The notes beneath the pieces are model-generated. The model was given only the letters and a program-made list of their open reading frames with translations, ran no database searches and had not been told where the DNA came from. Shown here in pieces: positions 36,806-57,551 of a DNA stretch of 64,000 nt; within the stretch, counting starts at the first letter, position 1; every line of letters begins with the position of its first letter. Position numbers and translations under genes: made by a program. The stretch lies in the NCBI GenBank assembly GCA_029547705.1, contig JAKPOU010000001.1:71437-135436 (forward strand). The letters run 5' to 3'. This DNA comes from Bacteroidota bacterium (GTDB taxonomy: Bacteria > Bacteroidota > Bacteroidia > Bacteroidales > VadinHA17).

Positions 36806-36825
36806 AAATGAACCTATGTTCATTT
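36806..36825. promoter_or_regulatory. Shared operator, copy 1
   Basis: AAATGAACCTATGTTCATTT fills the spacer between TTTG (36800-36803) and TACTTTAC (36825-36832). Confidence 0.75.
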
Positions 36826-37740: not shown

Positions 37741-38709
37741 ATGATAAGTTTCGGTCCTGTACCATCGAGGCGGCTTGGAAAAAGCCTGGGCATAAACAAT
37801 ATAATCGCACCAAAAACATGTTCATATGCCTGTGTTTACTGTCAGGCAGGCCGGACACACATAAAAAGCATTAAAAGAGATAGTTTCTTTGAACCTGAAA
37901 AGATATACAGGTCCGTAAATGAGCATATCAGTCTTTTGCCATCTGATAATTATCCTGATTATCTGACACTTGTTTCAAACGGGGAGCCGACTCTCGACAT
38001 TAATCTCGGCAGGACCATAGAGCTACTCCGCAGAACAGGCATCCCTGTCGCTGTAATTACCAATGCCTCCCTGCTTTTTTCCGATACGGTGAGGGAAGAT
38101 CTTTACCGGGCAGACTGGATTTCATTAAAGGTGGATGCTGCAGATGATGATTTATGGAAAAAAATCAACCGCCCCGACAGGAATCTTGATTTCGACAGGC
38201 ATATGAAGAGCATTTTCCTTTTTTCTGCTGAATACAAGGGTGTCCTCTGTACAGAATCAATGATAATTGACGGGCTGAATGATTTTCCTGATCATTTTGA
38301 AAAGCTTGCCGGAATCGTTAAGAGTATAAATCCGGAAAAAGCCTATCTGTCGGTACCCACAAGGCCTCCTTCGGAAAAATGGATAAAACCGCCTGATGCG
38401 GAAAAGCTGAACGCTGCATGGCAGATATTCAGCAAAAGGAAAATCAAAACGGAACTGCTGACAGGTTTTGAGGGGACCGATACCGGTTCAGGCGGAAACA
38501 TATATGAAGACATCCTGAACATAACAGCAGTTCATCCGCTGAGGGAAGACAGCATGCTGAAACTTCTGGAGAAGAACAATGCTGATTTCGGAATTGTTGA
38601 ATCACTGATTAATCAGAAACTGATAAGGCCGGTAGTGTATATGGATAAAAGGTTCTTTATAAGGGAATACCACTTTAGCCGAAACAAAAGCGGGGATAGT
38701 AATACCTGA
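37741..38709 (+). CDS. Radical SAM Fe-S protein
   Basis: FGPVPSRRLG.SLG, CSYACVYC, GEPTL. Confidence 0.9.
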   Translation: MISFGPVPSRRLGKSLGINNIIAPKTCSYACVYCQAGRTHIKSIKRDSFFEPEKIYRSVNEHISLLPSDNYPDYLTLVSNGEPTLDINLGRTIELLRRTGIPVAVITNASLLFSDTVREDLYRADWISLKVDAADDDLWKKINRPDRNLDFDRHMKSIFLFSAEYKGVLCTESMIIDGLNDFPDHFEKLAGIVKSINPEKAYLSVPTRPPSEKWIKPPDAEKLNAAWQIFSKRKIKTELLTGFEGTDTGSGGNIYEDILNITAVHPLREDSMLKLLEKNNADFGIVESLINQKLIRPVVYMDKRFFIREYHFSRNKSGDSNT

Positions 38710-38765: not shown

Positions 38766-39104
38766 TCAGGCTTCCTTTTCCAGTTCTCCGAGCCGTCTTT
38801 CAATCTCCTGCTGTGAACGTTTAAGGGCCTCTGCTTCTGATTTCAGCATTCTTACCTCATCTTCCCTGCTCAATGAAGGAGCCCATGGGTATCCGGGCAT
38901 AAAGCGGCCAAATCCACGGCCCCGTCCTGCCCCGCCCCTGAAGCCGGGCCCCCGGGCCCCTCCGCCTATGAAGCCGGATCCGCGGCCCATTCTCATTCCC
39001 CGTCCCTTCATAAAACCGGGACTGTCATATCCATAACAAAAACCTAATGTTCTTCCGGTTCCGGGACCCTGTCCCAGTGGTCCGGTACGATCTCCTGCCG
39101 GCAT
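38766..39104 (-). CDS. DUF5320 family Gly/Arg-rich protein with C-terminal coiled coil
   Basis: MP.GDRTGP.GQGP.TGR..G.C start, RG-rich middle, heptad tail. Confidence 0.85.
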   Translation of the reverse strand: MPAGDRTGPLGQGPGTGRTLGFCYGYDSPGFMKGRGMRMGRGSGFIGGGARGPGFRGGAGRGRGFGRFMPGYPWAPSLSREDEVRMLKSEAEALKRSQQEIERRLGELEKEA

Positions 39105-39161: not shown

Positions 39162-39181
39162 AAATGAACATATGTTCATTT
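39162..39181. promoter_or_regulatory. Shared operator, copy 2 (perfect 20-bp palindrome)
   Basis: AAATGAACATATGTTCATTT. Minus-strand TATATTTG at 39147-39154. Confidence 0.8.
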
Positions 39182-39242: not shown

Positions 39243-39701
39243 TCAGAAATTATCCGGTTTCACGGTTTTTCCGGCTTTTACATCCTTCTGTTCTTTTGCG
39301 GCAGCTTCATTGAGGGTGGTCAGATTATCAGAATCACATTCCCTGCAATGATCCACCGGGTGATCGCTGACCATGGTTTCATGGCATTCTTCGCATTTAT
39401 ACCAGTAATCTTCGGCAATAAAGGTGCCTCCCTGGATCATTATGGCCTTTCCTTCAACAAAAGCCCTGGCAACACTTTTACGGGCCTTGTCATATAATCT
39501 TGTAAAAGTCGGCCGCGAAATATTCATTCTTTCCGCAGCTTCCGCGTGTAACAGGTTTTCGTAATCAGCAAGCCGCAAAGCTTCAAATTCTTCATATAAA
39601 AGAATCACGGATTCAAGTTCCCGCATCGGAATCCCGAAAGGCTTGTAGCCTTTCATTCTCGGAGGATTGGTGAGCCGCCGGTGCCTTCTTCTGTTTGGCA
39701 T
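39243..39701 (-). CDS. DUF134 (UPF0251) HTH protein with C-terminal zinc ribbon
   Basis: EEFEALRLADY....AAERMNISRPTF.R...KARK, then CEEC...CREC. Confidence 0.88.
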   Translation of the reverse strand: MPNRRRHRRLTNPPRMKGYKPFGIPMRELESVILLYEEFEALRLADYENLLHAEAAERMNISRPTFTRLYDKARKSVARAFVEGKAIMIQGGTFIAEDYWYKCEECHETMVSDHPVDHCRECDSDNLTTLNEAAAKEQKDVKAGKTVKPDNF

Positions 39702-39751: not shown

Positions 39752-39771
39752 AAATGGACATATGTTCATTT
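39752..39771. promoter_or_regulatory. Shared operator, copy 3
   Basis: AAATGGACATATGTTCATTT. Minus-strand TAAATTTG at 39738-39745. Confidence 0.78.
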
Positions 39772-39850: not shown

Positions 39851-40339
39851 ATGAAAATCAAACTTTTTATCGTTGCCTTAATTTTATTTGGCGGATCAGC
39901 TGTCCTGGCACTTGCCCAGGACAAAGCGGCCGGACAGTCTCAGGAAGTTCCTGTTCCGGCCGGAAGGGGGGTTTATGTCGACGCGGACAATAATGGAATT
40001 TGTGATTATTTTGAAATGCGCGGCGCAAATTATGGTTTTGGCAGGGGACAGGGATATGGCAGGGCTCAGGCAGCAGTCCAGGGTTATGGCAGAGGCCAGG
40101 CAGCAGCCCAGGGCTACGGCAGGGCACAAATGGCAGTGCCGGGCGGCGGACCAGGCCCGGGCGGCGGATGGGGCCGTGCAATGGCTCCCGGACAGGGCCG
40201 TGGCCTGGGTCCCGCAAAAGGCTGGGGCCGCGGACTGGGGCCGGGGCAGGGACAGGGACTTGCACCGGGAGGAAGGTTTTTTAAAGATGAAAACAAAAAC
40301 GGAATCTGTGATTTTTACGAGGAATCCGTTAAAAAATAA
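39851..40339 (+). CDS. Secreted Gly-rich protein with two DxDxNGICD EF-hand-like loops
   Basis: Signal peptide, then DADNNGICDYFE and DENKNGICDFYE flanking a low-complexity linker. Confidence 0.8.
   Translation: MKIKLFIVALILFGGSAVLALAQDKAAGQSQEVPVPAGRGVYVDADNNGICDYFEMRGANYGFGRGQGYGRAQAAVQGYGRGQAAAQGYGRAQMAVPGGGPGPGGGWGRAMAPGQGRGLGPAKGWGRGLGPGQGQGLAPGGRFFKDENKNGICDFYEESVKK
40049..40138 (+). repeat. Coding tandem repeat, 3 x 30 bp
   Basis: Encodes QGYGRAQAAV / QGYGRGQAAA / QGYGRAQMAV. Confidence 0.85.
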
Positions 40340-40414: not shown

Positions 40415-40873
40415 TTATGCTTCCTTGAGTTTCAGATCTTTTATCAGCTCATTCATTTCTCTCCGTGCAGCATCGAAAGTATCATATCTGTTAACGACAA
40501 TTTTTCTGGATCCGTCCCTACTTACCAGGGCCAGCCTGATGTTCCTGTCTGTAAGGTTTGAGGGGGCATTCCGCCTGCTCCTGCCCGTTGATCTTCTTCC
40601 TTTGGTATAAATTGTAAATTTCCTGAAATGGTCCACACTGTACCACCTGCCGGCTTTAACCCATCCGAAAAGGCAGATGTAGTTTTTCAGCCTTCGCCTC
40701 TCAAAATCGATAATGGTTCCTTCATATGTGAATACTGCAAATATTCCCGCTAGTACAAGGAGCAGGCCGGCAATACTGAAACACGAGATTATCACTCCGG
40801 AAACGATAAGGAAATATCCGGCATATATGAGTGCCTGCCCGAACAGCCTGCCCAATCTGTATTCTTCCTTCAT
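40415..40873 (-). CDS. Hypothetical two-TM membrane protein
   Basis: Two N-terminal hydrophobic segments and a basic C-domain. Confidence 0.7.
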   Translation of the reverse strand: MKEEYRLGRLFGQALIYAGYFLIVSGVIISCFSIAGLLLVLAGIFAVFTYEGTIIDFERRRLKNYICLFGWVKAGRWYSVDHFRKFTIYTKGRRSTGRSRRNAPSNLTDRNIRLALVSRDGSRKIVVNRYDTFDAARREMNELIKDLKLKEA

Positions 40874-45336: not shown

Positions 45337-45356
45337 TTATGAACAAATGTTCATTA
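45337..45356. promoter_or_regulatory. Shared operator, copy 4
   Basis: TTATGAACAAATGTTCATTA overlapping the TAGCTTTG -7 element (45355-45362). Confidence 0.75.
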
Positions 45357-53614: not shown

Positions 53615-54472
53615 ATGGCTGAAGCACTTGTATTTATGTCAACGCCTTTTGCCGGCTCTCTTCTGCTGATAATAATAATGGTATATTTCGGAATTCACGT
53701 CATAGAAAGAGAAATTATTTTTATCGATATTGCACTTGCCCAGATTGCCGCTCTCGGAAGTGCCGTATCACTCGTTATTGCCACTGTTTCCCCTGATGCC
53801 TCCCATGACGTTCATGATCATGACTCAAGAACATTCCTGGCATATTTTTTCTGCCTTATAGCAGCGGGGATATTTACCCTTCTCAAAGACAGGCGGCTGA
53901 ACATACCTCTCGAAGCTGTTATCGGGATAGCCTACGCAATGGCAACAACCAGTGCGGTAATTATTCTCGACAAGGGCGCGGGAAGCGATGTACACATTCA
54001 TGATATGCTTGCGGGAACAATTCTCTGGATTTCCTGGGGTCAGGTTCTCAGACTATTTCTTGTAATACTGCCTATAGCCCTGTTGCATTATTTTTTCAGG
54101 GATAAATTCAAATCCGTCACTCTTGCATATCAGAACAAGGAAAGCGATATTAAAAATCCAAAACTATGGGATTTCATTTTTTATCTGACTTTCGGAATCA
54201 TTATAGTGGAAGCAGTTAGCATAGGAGGTATAGTAACAATCTTCGCATTCCTTATCATACCTGCAGCGATATCTGCCCTTTTCAGTACCCGCTGGACACA
54301 GAGAATCCTTATCGGTCTGCTGACCGGGGGCATTGCCGTAATCTTCGGACTCTACCTTTCATGGGTACTGGATGTTCCATGTTCCCCTACCATCATACTC
54401 TTCCTTGCGGTTTTGCTGCTTCTGGCAATCATTTTAAAAAGTATTATGAAAATCCGGAGGACAGCAGAATAA
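53615..54472 (+). CDS. ABC-3 family metal permease (paralog)
   Basis: FGIHVIEREIIFIDIALAQIAALG, EAVIG, and a His-rich loop HDVHDHD. Confidence 0.85.
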   Translation: MAEALVFMSTPFAGSLLLIIIMVYFGIHVIEREIIFIDIALAQIAALGSAVSLVIATVSPDASHDVHDHDSRTFLAYFFCLIAAGIFTLLKDRRLNIPLEAVIGIAYAMATTSAVIILDKGAGSDVHIHDMLAGTILWISWGQVLRLFLVILPIALLHYFFRDKFKSVTLAYQNKESDIKNPKLWDFIFYLTFGIIIVEAVSIGGIVTIFAFLIIPAAISALFSTRWTQRILIGLLTGGIAVIFGLYLSWVLDVPCSPTIILFLAVLLLLAIILKSIMKIRRTAE

Positions 54473-54515
54473 TTATTATGATCTTAGGACCATTGATGGT
54501 CTTCATTCTGCCCGG

Positions 54516-55091
54516 ATGACTGATTCTGAATTAATAACATTAATCCTCCAGGGCGACAGGGATTCATTCCGTATTCTTGTTGAACGCTACCAGCAGATGG
54601 TGTTCAGAACCTGCATGGGTTTCCTCCATAACAGGGAAGAAGCTGAAGATCTGGCACAGGATGTTTTTATCCGGGCTTATCAGTCCCTGTCCCGTTTCAG
54701 GGGAGAGTCGGCTTTTTCCACCTGGCTTTACAGGATCGCCGTAAACGCTTCACTTAACAGGACCAGGCGGTCTTCCCTGAAAATTACATTTGAAACACTG
54801 GAAAACACGGTCATTTCCGCCCCGGCAACAAGTGAGGATGATCCTGAAAAGATTCTGATCAGCCGGGAGCAGTCAGTGTGGCTCAGGCGGGCTGTCAATT
54901 CACTTCCTGAAAATCAGAGAACTGCAATCATACTGAGCAAATATGAGGATCTGTCCCAGAAAGAGATTGCAGAAATAATGATGACAAGCGAGGGAGCCGT
55001 GGAATCCCTGTTGTTCCGCGCAAAAAGAAACCTTCGTAAAAGATTGTCATCCGAAAGTAAAAAGATTGAAAAGAGGCACAGGAAAAAATAA
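54516..55091 (+). CDS. ECF RNA polymerase sigma factor
   Basis: AEDLAQDVF, FSTWLYRIAVN, LPENQR, LSQKEIAEIM. Confidence 0.93.
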   Translation: MTDSELITLILQGDRDSFRILVERYQQMVFRTCMGFLHNREEAEDLAQDVFIRAYQSLSRFRGESAFSTWLYRIAVNASLNRTRRSSLKITFETLENTVISAPATSEDDPEKILISREQSVWLRRAVNSLPENQRTAIILSKYEDLSQKEIAEIMMTSEGAVESLLFRAKRNLRKRLSSESKKIEKRHRKK

Positions 55092-55105
55092 AATTTTGTT
55101 TCTAA
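55077..55105 (+). promoter_or_regulatory. Candidate ECF promoter, copy 1
   Basis: CACAGG-N15-GTTTCTAA upstream of the anti-sigma gene. Confidence 0.5.
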
Positions 55106-55122
55106 CCATAAAAAGCGTTGAG

Positions 55123-55539
55123 ATGAATTGTCGTTTTTATCAGAAAGAAATTGATTCCTTTCTGGAAGGAAGATCCGGTCCCGCCGCAAGGGAACAGATT
55201 GAATCACATCTCAGGGAATGCAGGGAATGCAGGGAATATTACAGGATTCAGCTGCTGGCCGAAGAGCTGATATCAGAAGAAAAACAACTGAAGGTAAACC
55301 CTTTCCTTTCTGCACGCGTGATGTCACGGATTAAAAATCCGGAATCCCTCAGAGAGAAAAAGGTTCCGGGCATACTGAAACCGGCCCTGGTGGTATTGTC
55401 GGTTGCCGCAGCAATTTTTCTTGGTATCGTGATGGGAAGTATTCCCGGCCTGAGCCGGGGCAGCAGGCCTGTTCCTGCTGAACTGAGCATGATGAATGAT
55501 GCCCTGCTGGAATCGGTTGAACTGCTTGCAGCTGATTAA
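55123..55539 (+). CDS. Zinc-binding anti-sigma factor (ZAS) with TM segment
   Basis: HLRECREC (HxxxCxxC) and one TM helix. Track start is 55066. Confidence 0.85.
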   Translation: MNCRFYQKEIDSFLEGRSGPAAREQIESHLRECRECREYYRIQLLAEELISEEKQLKVNPFLSARVMSRIKNPESLREKKVPGILKPALVVLSVAAAIFLGIVMGSIPGLSRGSRPVPAELSMMNDALLESVELLAAD

Positions 55540-55540
55540 A

Positions 55541-56113
55541 ATGAACATCATGAGAACCGGCAGCAGATACCACTGGATGATATGGGCAATAATTGCACTG
55601 GCCCTGATGAATGTCACCACCTTTGCAACCATCCTGGTCAACAGGGGCAGAACAGTAAAGACCGGCATGCTTCACCTGCCGGAGCAAGCGTACTCAGACA
55701 GGACTTCACTCCGTTACAGCGGAAGATATTTCCGCGACCACCTGGGTCTGACCAGGGAACAAATGTCGAGGTTCACGGAATTCAATCCCGTATTCAGAAG
55801 AAATGCAAGAGAAATAAATATCAGCCTGGCGGAGCTGAGAAGGCAGATGATGATCGAAATGTCTGCGGAAACGAGTGATACCGTAAAACTGAATACCATT
55901 TCGGATTCAATAGGCCGCCTCCACAGCCGCCTGAAAAAGATAAGCTGGGAATATTATCTTGACCTGAAAAATATATGCAATAAGGAACAGGAGGCAAAAC
56001 TTGAAGAAATGTTTGGCTCAATGTTTACGCCTGACGGTCAGGAATTCCGGCGCGGTCCCGGTGGATTCCGGAATCCGCCCGGCCGGGGTCAGGGCAGACG
56101 GCCCGGCATCTGA
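55541..56113 (+). CDS. Spy/CpxP/heavy-metal-resistance-like periplasmic helical protein
   Basis: N-terminal TM, LGLTREQ and a second degenerate LTxxQ motif (CNKEQ), RG-rich tail. Confidence 0.75.
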   Translation: MNIMRTGSRYHWMIWAIIALALMNVTTFATILVNRGRTVKTGMLHLPEQAYSDRTSLRYSGRYFRDHLGLTREQMSRFTEFNPVFRRNAREINISLAELRRQMMIEMSAETSDTVKLNTISDSIGRLHSRLKKISWEYYLDLKNICNKEQEAKLEEMFGSMFTPDGQEFRRGPGGFRNPPGRGQGRRPGI

Positions 56114-56135: not shown

Positions 56136-56164
56136 CGCAGGAAAATGCAGGATTATGTTTCCAA
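56136..56164 (+). promoter_or_regulatory. Candidate ECF promoter, copy 2
   Basis: CGCAGG-N15-GTTTCCAA, same spacing as copy 1. Confidence 0.5.
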
Positions 56165-56215: not shown

Positions 56216-56686
56216 ATGAAAAGGAAACTCTTTATAAGCGCAATCGTACTGCTGATTGCAACAGCACTGACTTATGCCCGGGAACAGGAAAGGGTTCAGA
56301 CGCAGCAGAACCCTCCTGGCAGGGGCGTGTGGGTTGATGAAGACAATAACGGCATTTGCGACAATTTTGAAGCACGTGCAGCAGCGGGATTCAGAAACGG
56401 CATCCGGCCTTTCATGAGAGGAGGCCGTCAGGATTTTGAAACCGGGGAAGCTAACCGTGGCATCCTGCCCGGACGCGGATACTGCAGAAACTATACCGGA
56501 AGCGTAAACAGCAGAGATGCAGGAAACTATTCCAATGCAGGAAACAGGGCTTACGGAAGAAACTACATCAGTGCCGGGAACAGAGGCTACGGAAGAAACT
56601 ACATCAATGCCGGGAACAGAGGCTACGGAAGAAACTATATTGATGCCAACAACAACGGTATATGTGATTACCGTGAAATTCCCTGA
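56216..56686 (+). CDS. Second secreted protein with two DxDxNGICD EF-hand-like loops
   Basis: Signal peptide, DEDNNGICDNFE and DANNNGICDYRE. Confidence 0.8.
   Translation: MKRKLFISAIVLLIATALTYAREQERVQTQQNPPGRGVWVDEDNNGICDNFEARAAAGFRNGIRPFMRGGRQDFETGEANRGILPGRGYCRNYTGSVNSRDAGNYSNAGNRAYGRNYISAGNRGYGRNYINAGNRGYGRNYIDANNNGICDYREIP
56534..56641 (+). repeat. Coding tandem repeat, 3 x 36 bp
   Basis: Encodes (N/S)AGNR(A/G)YGRNYI three times with no spacers. Confidence 0.9.
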
Positions 56687-56705: not shown

Positions 56706-57551
56706 ATGAAGAAACAGAATTCCTTTAATCTCCGCAGCTTCACCAGTTTCAGCCTGGTAATCTCAACGATTGTTATGTCATGGTCCGGTTTCATTCTCTA
56801 TTTCGCGCCTCCCGGAAGAATAGCCAACTGGACCGGCTGGAAAATTATGCTCTTCACAAAGGCTGAATGGCAGGCCTTTCATACAATATTCTCATTCATG
56901 TTCTTCATCCTGTTCATCATTCATCTGTTTTTTGTGAACTGGAAGGCTTTTCTTACCTATTTCAGAAGCAGGATCAGAAAGGGCCTGAACAGAAAACGGG
57001 AGCTTTTTGCAGCAGTGGGCATTTCACTTTTATTTTTCACCGGAACCCTCGCATCCTGGGCACCTTTCGGTACTGTCATGGATTTCGGCGAAACACTGAA
57101 GGAAGGCTGGGATAAAAAATATGAAAGTCCGGCAATAGCACATATGGAAGAATTCACACTTTTGAGGCTTGCGACAGTTTTTGCGGGAGTCAGCTCCGAT
57201 GATCTTCTCATCACACTGAGGGACAGTGGTATTGTTGTCAGGGGGCAGAATGCCAGGCTGAAGCATATTGCTGCTGACAACGGGGTGACCCCTGCCAGGC
57301 TGTATGAGATACTGACCAGGAGATATCCCGGAGATGAGGAGAGTCATAAATATGAAGTGCCTTCAGGAATCGGTAAAATGACCATAAACATGGTAGCTTC
57401 AAGGCTCGGGAAAGATCCTTCAGTACTGACAGGAATTTTAAGGGATATGGGTGTCAGTGCCAATGGTGAAAGCACCTTGAGAACAGTAGCCGTTCAGCTT
57501 GGAATATCTCCCCATGATCTTTACTCCCTGCTGACAGGAGACCGGAACTGA
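56706..57551 (+). CDS. DUF4405 domain membrane protein
   Basis: SG.ILYFAPPGR...EW..FHT....F..LF.IHL...NW with a His pair in TM helices. Track start 56517 is a shadow of the repeat. Confidence 0.8.
   Translation: MKKQNSFNLRSFTSFSLVISTIVMSWSGFILYFAPPGRIANWTGWKIMLFTKAEWQAFHTIFSFMFFILFIIHLFFVNWKAFLTYFRSRIRKGLNRKRELFAAVGISLLFFTGTLASWAPFGTVMDFGETLKEGWDKKYESPAIAHMEEFTLLRLATVFAGVSSDDLLITLRDSGIVVRGQNARLKHIAADNGVTPARLYEILTRRYPGDEESHKYEVPSGIGKMTINMVASRLGKDPSVLTGILRDMGVSANGESTLRTVAVQLGISPHDLYSLLTGDRN

Follow-up and report, generated by a model that had tools for sequence, protein, structure and literature searches.

Excalibur (DxDxDGxxCE) is a secreted bacterial loop of the DxDxDG type in which a conserved cysteine stands beside an acidic residue, as it does in the proteins presented here. 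The cysteine of Excalibur is found at position 9, is followed by Glu, and pairs with an earlier cysteine within a compact domain some 36 residues long. In the geometry of the EF-hand loop, the side chain at position 8 faces away from the bound ion. The present analysis concerns a stretch of 64,000 nucleotides, called the window below, from Bacteroidota bacterium of the VadinHA17 lineage (assembly GCA_029547705.1, contig JAKPOU010000001.1, positions 71,437 to 135,436). It contains two genes, gene 1 and gene 2, coding small secreted proteins with Cys-containing loops of the EF type, and gene 2 is the fourth gene of a module headed by an extracytoplasmic function (ECF) sigma factor. A module of this kind is known from the sigma factor group ECF281 (Casas-Pastor et al. 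2021, PMC7826278), in which the sigma factor is accompanied by a zinc-finger anti-sigma factor (+1) and by a 'heavy-metal resistance protein' of family PF13801 (+2). The same article traces ECF281 to ECF20, from which the CnrH group, ECF291, also arose. The host assembly comprises 3.78 Mb in 70 contigs, has a GC content of 45% and is 92.9% complete.

The anatomy of the two proteins, the family to which they belong and their regulation can be described with high confidence. With a probability of roughly 0.5, we propose from the sequence data that the loop protein either buffers metal in the periplasm or works as a partner or client of the Spy/CnrX-like protein encoded in the same module, in a way that depends on metal or redox state.

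Two loop proteins of the window

The features of the two genes and of their surroundings are presented in Table 1. Both products start with a Sec signal peptide of the classical type and carry two loops of twelve residues, joined by a linker rich in Gly, Arg and Tyr; their sequence identity is 38%. The mature proteins are of about 14-15 kDa, basic (pI, the isoelectric point, of 9.4) and free of His, and that of gene 1, with a mass of about 14.3 kDa, contains 26% Gly. The cleavage site of the gene 1 signal peptide was placed by reading the sequence rather than by a prediction program. Residues A22 and Q23 at this site are conserved in at least 90% of the aligned homologues, which fits the usual occurrence of Gln at the mature N-terminus in Bacteroidota.

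The preliminary description of this stretch had read two loops of the form D-x-[DN]-x-N-G-I-C-D-x-x-E in each protein, had matched them to positions 1, 3, 5, 6, 9 and 12 of the EF loop, and had seen tandem repeats in both linkers. The translations of the two open reading frames bear out the loops and their ligand positions, and the repeats are found at the DNA level by Tandem Repeats Finder (TRF). When all six frames of the complete 3.78 Mb were scanned for D-x-[DNKE]-x-[DN]-G-[IVL]-C-D, only four copies were found, all of them within genes 1 and 2, and chance can therefore be excluded as the origin of the motif. Residues D44, G49, C51 and D52 of the first loop of gene 1, and D146, N150, G151, C153, D154 and E157 of the second, are invariant in the alignment of its homologues. 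The number of repeat units in the gene 1 linker varies even among close relatives, one of which (P0001) is one unit short while another (P0002) has extra units.

A large family with a conserved cysteine

A word-indexed protein search gave 43 relatives for gene 1 and 17 for gene 2, with chain lengths of 100-218 residues. A family profile was built from 22 members and compared with 1.84 billion cluster representatives, of which 1445 matched at E<=1e-3 and 275 at E<=1e-10, nearly all of them 80-170 residues long. The profile survey suggested in the preliminary description has thus uncovered a large family, of at least 1445 clusters at 50% identity, that carries no usable annotation. The number of loops per chain, counted in 197 small members, is one in 41 proteins, two in 136, three in 13, four in 2 and five in 1. 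Of the two-loop proteins, 63 carry exactly two cysteines, and nine members of the family have three loops together with exactly three cysteines. The linkers of the family contain 30% Gly and 12% Arg and range in length from about 12 to about 100 residues.

The logo of 346 loops reads [RG]-x-[FY]-[VI]-D1-x-N3-[KN]-N5-G6-[IV]7-C8-D9-[NY]-[YF]-E12. In this set D1, G6 and D9 are each present in 100% of the loops, position 3 is Asn in 75% and Asp in 24%, position 5 is Asn in 77% and Asp in 22%, Ile or Val occupies position 7 in 98%, and Glu occupies position 12 in 78%. The oxygen ligands expected of an EF-hand loop (PF00036/PF13499) at positions 1, 3, 5, 9 and 12 and the glycine at position 6 are thus found in the family, with Asn or Asp in 99% of the loops at position 3 and likewise in 99% at position 5. 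The conservation of the cysteine was counted on loops whose definition prescribed no residue at positions 7-9; of these 384 loops, 380 have Cys8 and 382 have Asp9.

The hosts are mostly uncultured Bacteroidales, Prolixibacteraceae, Lentimicrobiaceae, Marinilabiliaceae, Paludibacter and Thermophagus, with some Clostridia. Since 16 of the 401 genomes of an even sample of the phylum have a match, the distribution of the family across the phylum is patchy.

Three giant repeat proteins of 3064-5450 residues (P0065, P0083 and P0147) also score highly with the family profile. The loops of these adhesin-like proteins are of the SdrD-B type, free of cysteine, and have the form RVYVDANLNGVDDGE. The loop and the strand preceding it are therefore common to Cys-less Ca-binding beta-sandwich repeats.

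The loop gene as part of an ECF module

In 23 of 30 species-representative loci found with the family profile, the loop gene directly adjoins co-directional genes of the ECF sigma/anti-sigma/Spy-like set, and the full triad is present in 17. The order of the module is either sigma factor, anti-sigma factor, Spy-like protein and loop protein, or loop protein followed by the other three; in the three Clostridia among the 23 linked loci, the loop gene precedes the sigma gene. Contig ends cut two of the seven loci that lack the module. The linkage is also seen in the reverse direction: four of four Spy-like loci, picked only for their long contigs, have the order sigma, anti-sigma, Spy-like and loop protein, the last, at +3, being 109-124 residues long. 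In the 401 genomes, close orthologues of the Spy-like protein (at least 39% identity, counting that of the window) are encoded beside the loop gene in 3 of 3 cases, while an EF-type loop protein lies within 1.5 kb of none of 27 distant homologues. The partnership of the loop protein with the Spy-like protein is therefore specific to one subfamily.

The module of the window has the gene layout of ECF281, and it is classed here by this layout. Its third gene carries the precomputed tag PF13801 and the source name 'Spy/CpxP family protein refolding chaperone'. The true start of the anti-sigma factor is probably later than the annotated one, and the start of the DUF4405 gene was taken as the first Met past the stop codon of gene 2. 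Since the loop protein is encoded in this operon, it is expected to be made whenever the envelope/metal-stress sigma factor fires. A metal- or stress-related role in the periplasm fits the conserved operon, and in this the preliminary description, which had suggested a redox or metal sensor or buffer, is supported.

The Spy-like protein ends in a tail, RRGPGGFRNPPGRGQGRRPGI (56040-56113), that is rich in Gly and Arg and resembles in composition the linkers of the loop proteins and DUF5320. Downstream of the loop gene, two further genes recur. A DUF4405 gene (cytochrome b-like) follows it in the window and at loci L010, L030 and L043, and a DUF2202 gene (PF09968), whose product we take to be ferritin-like, follows it in three of the four modules sampled through the Spy-like protein (L041, 3953-4729; L042, 3988-4800; L043, 4049-4732). 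With these genes included, the module may be one for iron or redox stress.

Promoters of the module

In many genomes, the first gene of the module is preceded by a bipartite element, (C)GTAGGA-N16/17-TGTCTAA. It is present in 6 of 11 loci in which the sigma gene is first and in 4-5 of 6 Bacteroidota loci in which the loop gene is first; the three Clostridia have a GAAAG...CGTATTA element in its place. In the window, a promoter-like element of this type stands where the preliminary description had placed an ECF promoter ahead of gene 2, and a second copy lies at the junction of the sigma and anti-sigma genes (Table 1). As the promoter element of the module stands before gene 2, transcription of this gene very probably depends on the sigma factor encoded in the module.

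The region upstream of the sigma gene itself (54440-54515) has only a weak variant, GGAGGAC-N16-TGATCTTA, while the clear copies precede the anti-sigma gene and gene 2. At another locus (L040, about 1815-1880), the ECF sigma gene is immediately preceded by six tandem units of 9 bp, GTCACTTTA, at the place where the other loci have the GTAGGA...TGTCTAA promoter.

Table 1. Positions of the loop genes, their regulatory elements and neighbouring genes in the window
Feature	Position	Strand	Description and evidence
Gene 1	39851..40339	+	162-aa secreted two-loop protein; open reading frame, homologues, alignments
Gene 1 Sec signal peptide	39851..39916	+	residues 1-22, predicted cleavage between ALA and Q; read from sequence
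Gene 1 loop 1	39980..40015	+	DADNNGICDYFE, residues 44-55
Gene 1 linker	40049..40125	+	30-bp tandem repeat, 2.6 copies, units QGYGR[AG]QAA[VA]; TRF
Gene 1 loop 2	40286..40321	+	DENKNGICDFYE, residues 146-157
Gene 2	56216..56686	+	156-aa secreted two-loop paralogue, fourth gene of the ECF module
Gene 2 loop 1	56336..56371	+	DEDNNGICDNFE, residues 41-52
Gene 2 linker	56533..56637	+	36-bp tandem repeat, 2.9 copies, units AGNRGYGRNYIN; TRF
Gene 2 loop 2	56642..56677	+	DANNNGICDYRE, residues 143-154
ECF sigma factor	54516..55091	+	Pfam Sigma70_r2, Sigma70_r4_2
Anti-sigma factor	55066..55539	+	zf-HC2 domain, one transmembrane segment; PF13490 E=1.7e-5, 25.3 bits (cut-off 22.2); NCBIfam anti-sigma
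Spy/CpxP/CnrX-like protein	55541..56113	+	membrane-anchored, periplasmic, Gly/Arg-rich tail; PF13801
ECF-type promoter-like element	56138..56164	+	CAGGAAAATGCAGGATTATGTTTCCAA (CAGGAA-N15-GTTTCCAA), 52 nt before gene 2
Second ECF-type element	55079..55105	+	CAGGAAAAAATAAAATTTTGTTTCTAA, sigma/anti-sigma junction
DUF4405 protein	56709..57551	+	cytochrome b-like membrane protein, directly 3' of gene 2; PF14358 E=8e-13
Palindromic operator	39754..39769	.	16 bp, ATGGACATATGTTCAT, between gene 1 and divergent DUF134 gene
DUF134 protein	39243..39701	-	sigma-70 region 4-like helix-turn-helix and CxxC...CxxC ribbon; PF02001 E=4e-22
DUF5320 protein	38766..39104	-	Gly/Arg-rich; PF17253 E=4e-19; perfect operator copy 39164-39179 upstream
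Membrane protein	40415-40873	-	152 aa, predicted, no Pfam hit, convergent with gene 1

Relation to known families and solved structures

No model of Pfam-A or NCBIfam reaches its cut-off with the two proteins of the window or with the multi-loop relatives that were scanned. The best Excalibur (PF05901) score is 13 bits with a cut-off of 22, and the cysteine is found one position earlier (G-[IV]-C-D); TSP3_bac (PF18884) gives 16.3 bits with a cut-off of 25, and SdrD_B (PF17210) 10.4 with a cut-off of 29.7. A precomputed and tentative label of a recent Pfam family, PF27309 'MJ0753_N', is attached as 'faint' to most members, none of whose matches reaches E=0.001. The literature searches gave no mention of MJ0753, nothing relevant for the strings of the loop motif, and only unrelated papers on DUF13xx families for DUF134 and DUF5320.

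When the whole protein was compared with the sequences of solved structures, Gly/Arg-rich ribosomal tails were the sole matches. A profile of 80 loop units gave a different result. Its best matches among all PDB sequences are engineered constructs with a lanthanide-binding tag (GPGYIDTNNDG...), namely 2ojr (E=0.0056) and also 3vdz, 2rpv, 2ktr, 6y1r and 5oba, and no natural protein of solved structure in this set is closer to the loop profile than these tags.

This similarity raises the question of whether the loops are natural sites of the lanthanide type, for trivalent hard cations, so that the family would handle rare-earth or similar ions. The tags, the only matches of solved structure, share the stretch [YF]-[IV]-D-[TA]-N-N-[DN]-G with the family, and six of six ligand positions are occupied. 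However, the match covers the first half of the loop only, its E-values are marginal (0.0056 to 0.7), and the Pro at position 2 that is typical of lanmodulin is absent. In addition, no lanthanide-related gene is found nearby, and the hosts are Bacteroidales and Clostridia of anaerobic digesters, sediment and gut, for which we know of no lanthanide enzymes. Lanthanide-type sites are for these reasons considered very unlikely.

Predicted structure

Two runs of AlphaFold2 were made, one for gene 1 with 68 sequences and one for a relative of 100 residues with 52 sequences. Each loop is modelled in the same way, with a bridge that joins residue 7 to the residue ahead of D1 and with a helix starting from D9, at a predicted local distance difference test (pLDDT) value of about 57-66. 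The linker is predicted to be disordered, with a pLDDT of 34-44. In these low-confidence models the loop has only the exiting helix and is preceded by a short turn and the bridge residue; a folded pair of loops and an entering helix are absent from both. A Foldseek search with the AlphaFold model gave no matches.

The disordered, basic chain might suggest a structural or protective protein of the envelope, which coats or cross-links anionic polymers of the envelope, for example lipopolysaccharide, peptidoglycan or extracellular DNA, the acidic loops serving solely as Ca2+ bridges, and which is produced as an output of stress with no part in sensing or buffering. The high pI of the mature protein, the Gly and Arg content of the family linkers, the predicted disorder, the fast-evolving number of repeats and the location of the gene in the operon of an envelope-stress sigma factor are all in agreement with such a role. 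However, it leaves unexplained why the cysteine is conserved in 99% of the loops and why the protein occurs together with a single subfamily of Spy-like proteins. We do not consider a purely structural role likely.

The cysteine as a staple or as a free thiol

The preliminary description had proposed that a disulfide or soft-metal site between the two Cys8 residues staples a Ca-binding pair of loops, the protein serving as a periplasmic redox or metal sensor or buffer. In this model the loops would pair as in a classical EF hand, with their cysteines opposed at the short beta bridge, and the protein would work as a redox or metal switch. It is known that in canonical EF-hand pairs the contact with the partner loop is made through position 8. 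Two loops are also the commonest number in the family, many of these proteins have just two cysteines, and the cysteine is nearly always retained. The operator found in front of gene 1 occurs, moreover, in front of a gene for a pyridine-nucleotide disulfide oxidoreductase.

However, the models of DsbA, DsbB, VKOR and Thioredoxin_4 (PF01323, PF02600, PF07884 and PF13462) find nothing in the genome, which is 92.9% complete, while control genomes respond to them; the periplasmic disulfide oxidase system expected in the host of a disulfide-stapled protein is accordingly not found in it. There are members with one, three or five loops, including those with three loops and three cysteines, and the length of the linker varies about tenfold by the gain and loss of repeats. 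The AlphaFold models, at low confidence, show neither entering helices nor pairing between loops, and the predicted loops appear self-contained. The lack of Dsb genes, the members with three cysteines in three loops, and the variation of loop number and linker length thus argue against a constitutive intramolecular staple between the two Cys8 residues. Of the preliminary description as a whole, the EF-type loops, the conserved cysteine, the regulation and the metal or stress context stand, while the stapled pair of EF hands is not supported and is regarded as unlikely.

Since position 8 points away from the ion, the thiol of Cys8 is more likely a separate second functional group, either a soft-metal ligand or a group reactive with oxidants. 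A role of this kind in soft-metal or redox chemistry is possible.

The operator of gene 1 and its neighbourhood

Gene 1 is a relocated duplicate under an operator of the DUF134 type, and gene 2 is the canonical copy. The region between gene 1 and the divergent DUF134 gene, where the preliminary description had placed a copy of an operator, does contain a palindrome (Table 1), which has the form ATGAAC-N4-GTTCAT. With up to 3 mismatches it occurs five times in the window, where 0.5 copies would be expected. The copies with no more than one mismatch (36808-36823, 39164-39179, 39754-39769 and 45339-45354) precede an ARMT1-like gene that is followed by a radical S-adenosylmethionine (SAM) gene, the DUF5320 gene, the pair of DUF134 and gene 1, and a cluster of NifX-like, MinD-ferredoxin and Mrp genes. 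There are nine copies in the whole genome, and the one before the disulfide oxidoreductase gene mentioned above, which lies on another contig (C11:58541), is perfect.

The palindrome is kept in front of the gene 1 orthologues (L001-L003). In another genus, which has a homologue with 36% identity and different neighbours, the sole exact copy of ATGAACANNTGTTCAT in the genome of 3.9 Mb is located about 200 bp upstream of the loop gene. Variants with one and two mismatches are located in the same genome 50-110 bp upstream of two of its three DUF134 genes, and it is because of these variants that DUF134 is the likely regulator acting, by presumed binding, at the palindrome. The palindrome ATGAACATATGTTCAT probably defines a small regulon, of which DUF134 would be the autoregulated repressor or activator. 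Linkers of the gene 1 type are also found in three proteins (P0030, L011 and L013) that still sit in ECF modules.

Homology of the gene 1 linker with the neighbouring DUF5320 protein was considered and rejected, as the similarity is one of composition only. The membrane protein convergent with gene 1 is found at the same position in the close relatives L001-L003 (E=6e-83).

The radical SAM gene of this neighbourhood (37741-38709) lies within 1.2 kb of gene 1, and the loops contain repeated Cys-Asp motifs. The protein could then be the precursor of a ribosomally synthesized and post-translationally modified peptide, in which the radical SAM enzyme would cross-link Cys and Asp or Asn residues. 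However, the protein has a classical Sec signal peptide, and the radical SAM gene is missing at the same position in L001-L003 and from the contexts of the ECF module. As the enzyme is not conserved beside the orthologues, this extremely improbable explanation was rejected.

Proposed role

We propose that the loop protein is an exported, mostly disordered chain carrying autonomous EF-type loops similar to tags, in the manner of beads on a string. The consensus of a bead is [FY]-[VI]-D1-x-N3-x-N5-G6-[IV]7-C8-D9-x-[YF]-E12. Each loop would fold alone around a hard cation, by default Ca2+. As in EF loops and the engineered lanthanide tags, the ion is predicted to be bound by D1, N3, Asn or Asp at position 5, D9 and E12, and by the main-chain carbonyl of residue 7. 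Cys8 would be directed away from the ion and, in an anaerobe that lacks the machinery of disulfide formation, may be present as a free thiol able to bind a soft metal or to react with oxidants. Gene 1 would represent a second copy wired to the DUF134 regulon, together with genes for handling Fe-S clusters and cofactors.

Several points weigh against the reading of a buffer or of a partner of the Spy/CnrX-like protein. The Spy-like protein of the window gives 27.7 bits with PF13801, slightly under the cut-off of 29.2, and no model of the EF-hand type reaches its cut-off, the score of EF-hand_1 being 11 bits (E=0.35) against 25.4. E12 is absent from 22% of the loops, chiefly in Clostridia. The mean pLDDT values of the two AlphaFold2 runs, 47.5 and 53.6, are of low confidence, and in a genome that is 93% complete a Dsb gene could possibly have been missed.

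A more specific role may also be envisaged, in which the loop protein is the signal receiver of an ECF281-type switch: the loops of the disordered periplasmic chain would fold on a hard cation (Ca2+ or trivalent), the free thiols on the outside would catch a soft metal or an oxidant, and the dedicated Spy/CnrX-like protein would read the resulting state of folding or cross-linking and free the sigma factor. This is a doubtful extension. If it were true, the protein would be a sensor with two inputs, hard cation and thiol, built of natural single-loop units similar to lanthanide tags.

The loop protein adds to the modules of the ECF281 type, which are counted among metal-stress systems, a fourth and tightly co-inherited component of simple chemistry. 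Isolated tag-like EF loops with an invariant cysteine on a disordered chain could offer a compact natural scaffold for mixed hard- and soft-metal binding or redox sensing in the periplasm of anaerobes. These loops are also a possible source of short metal-binding tags.

Comparison with known systems

Both the chemistry of the loop (DxDxDG/EF class) and the sigma module (ECF281) are of known kinds. The literature found does not describe the invariance of Cys8, the architecture of single tag-like loops on a basic, disordered chain, or the tight operon link with one subfamily.

With the EF-hand loop and the lanthanide-binding tag (YIDTNNDGWYEGDELLA; PDB 2ojr, 2rpv and 6y1r), the family loop shares the length of 12 residues, the ligands at positions 1, 3, 5, 9 and 12, Gly6, and an aromatic residue with Ile or Val ahead of D1. 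Like the lanthanide tag, it appears to be a self-contained unit with no partner domain. However, positions 7-8 are [IV]-C in the family, x-[IVL] in the EF-hand and W-Y in the tag, and the low-confidence models of the family loops show neither an entering helix nor the four-helix pair of the EF-hand. In contrast to Excalibur, the cysteine is located at position 8 and followed by Asp, and the unit has no partner cysteine. The stretch G-x-V-[YW]-x-D-x-N-x-N-G-x-x-D-x-x-E is similar to the loops of the SdrD B-repeat and of bacterial TSP3, but those loops are free of cysteine and belong to folded beta-sandwich or wire-like domains.

The module resembles ECF281 and the CnrYXH system of Cupriavidus metallidurans in having an ECF sigma factor, a zinc-finger anti-sigma factor at +1 and a PF13801 protein (CnrX/Spy/ZraP-like) at +2. 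It differs from them in that no efflux pump is linked to the module in the window, and a conserved loop protein at +3 or -1 is not mentioned in the text of PMC7826278 that was searched.

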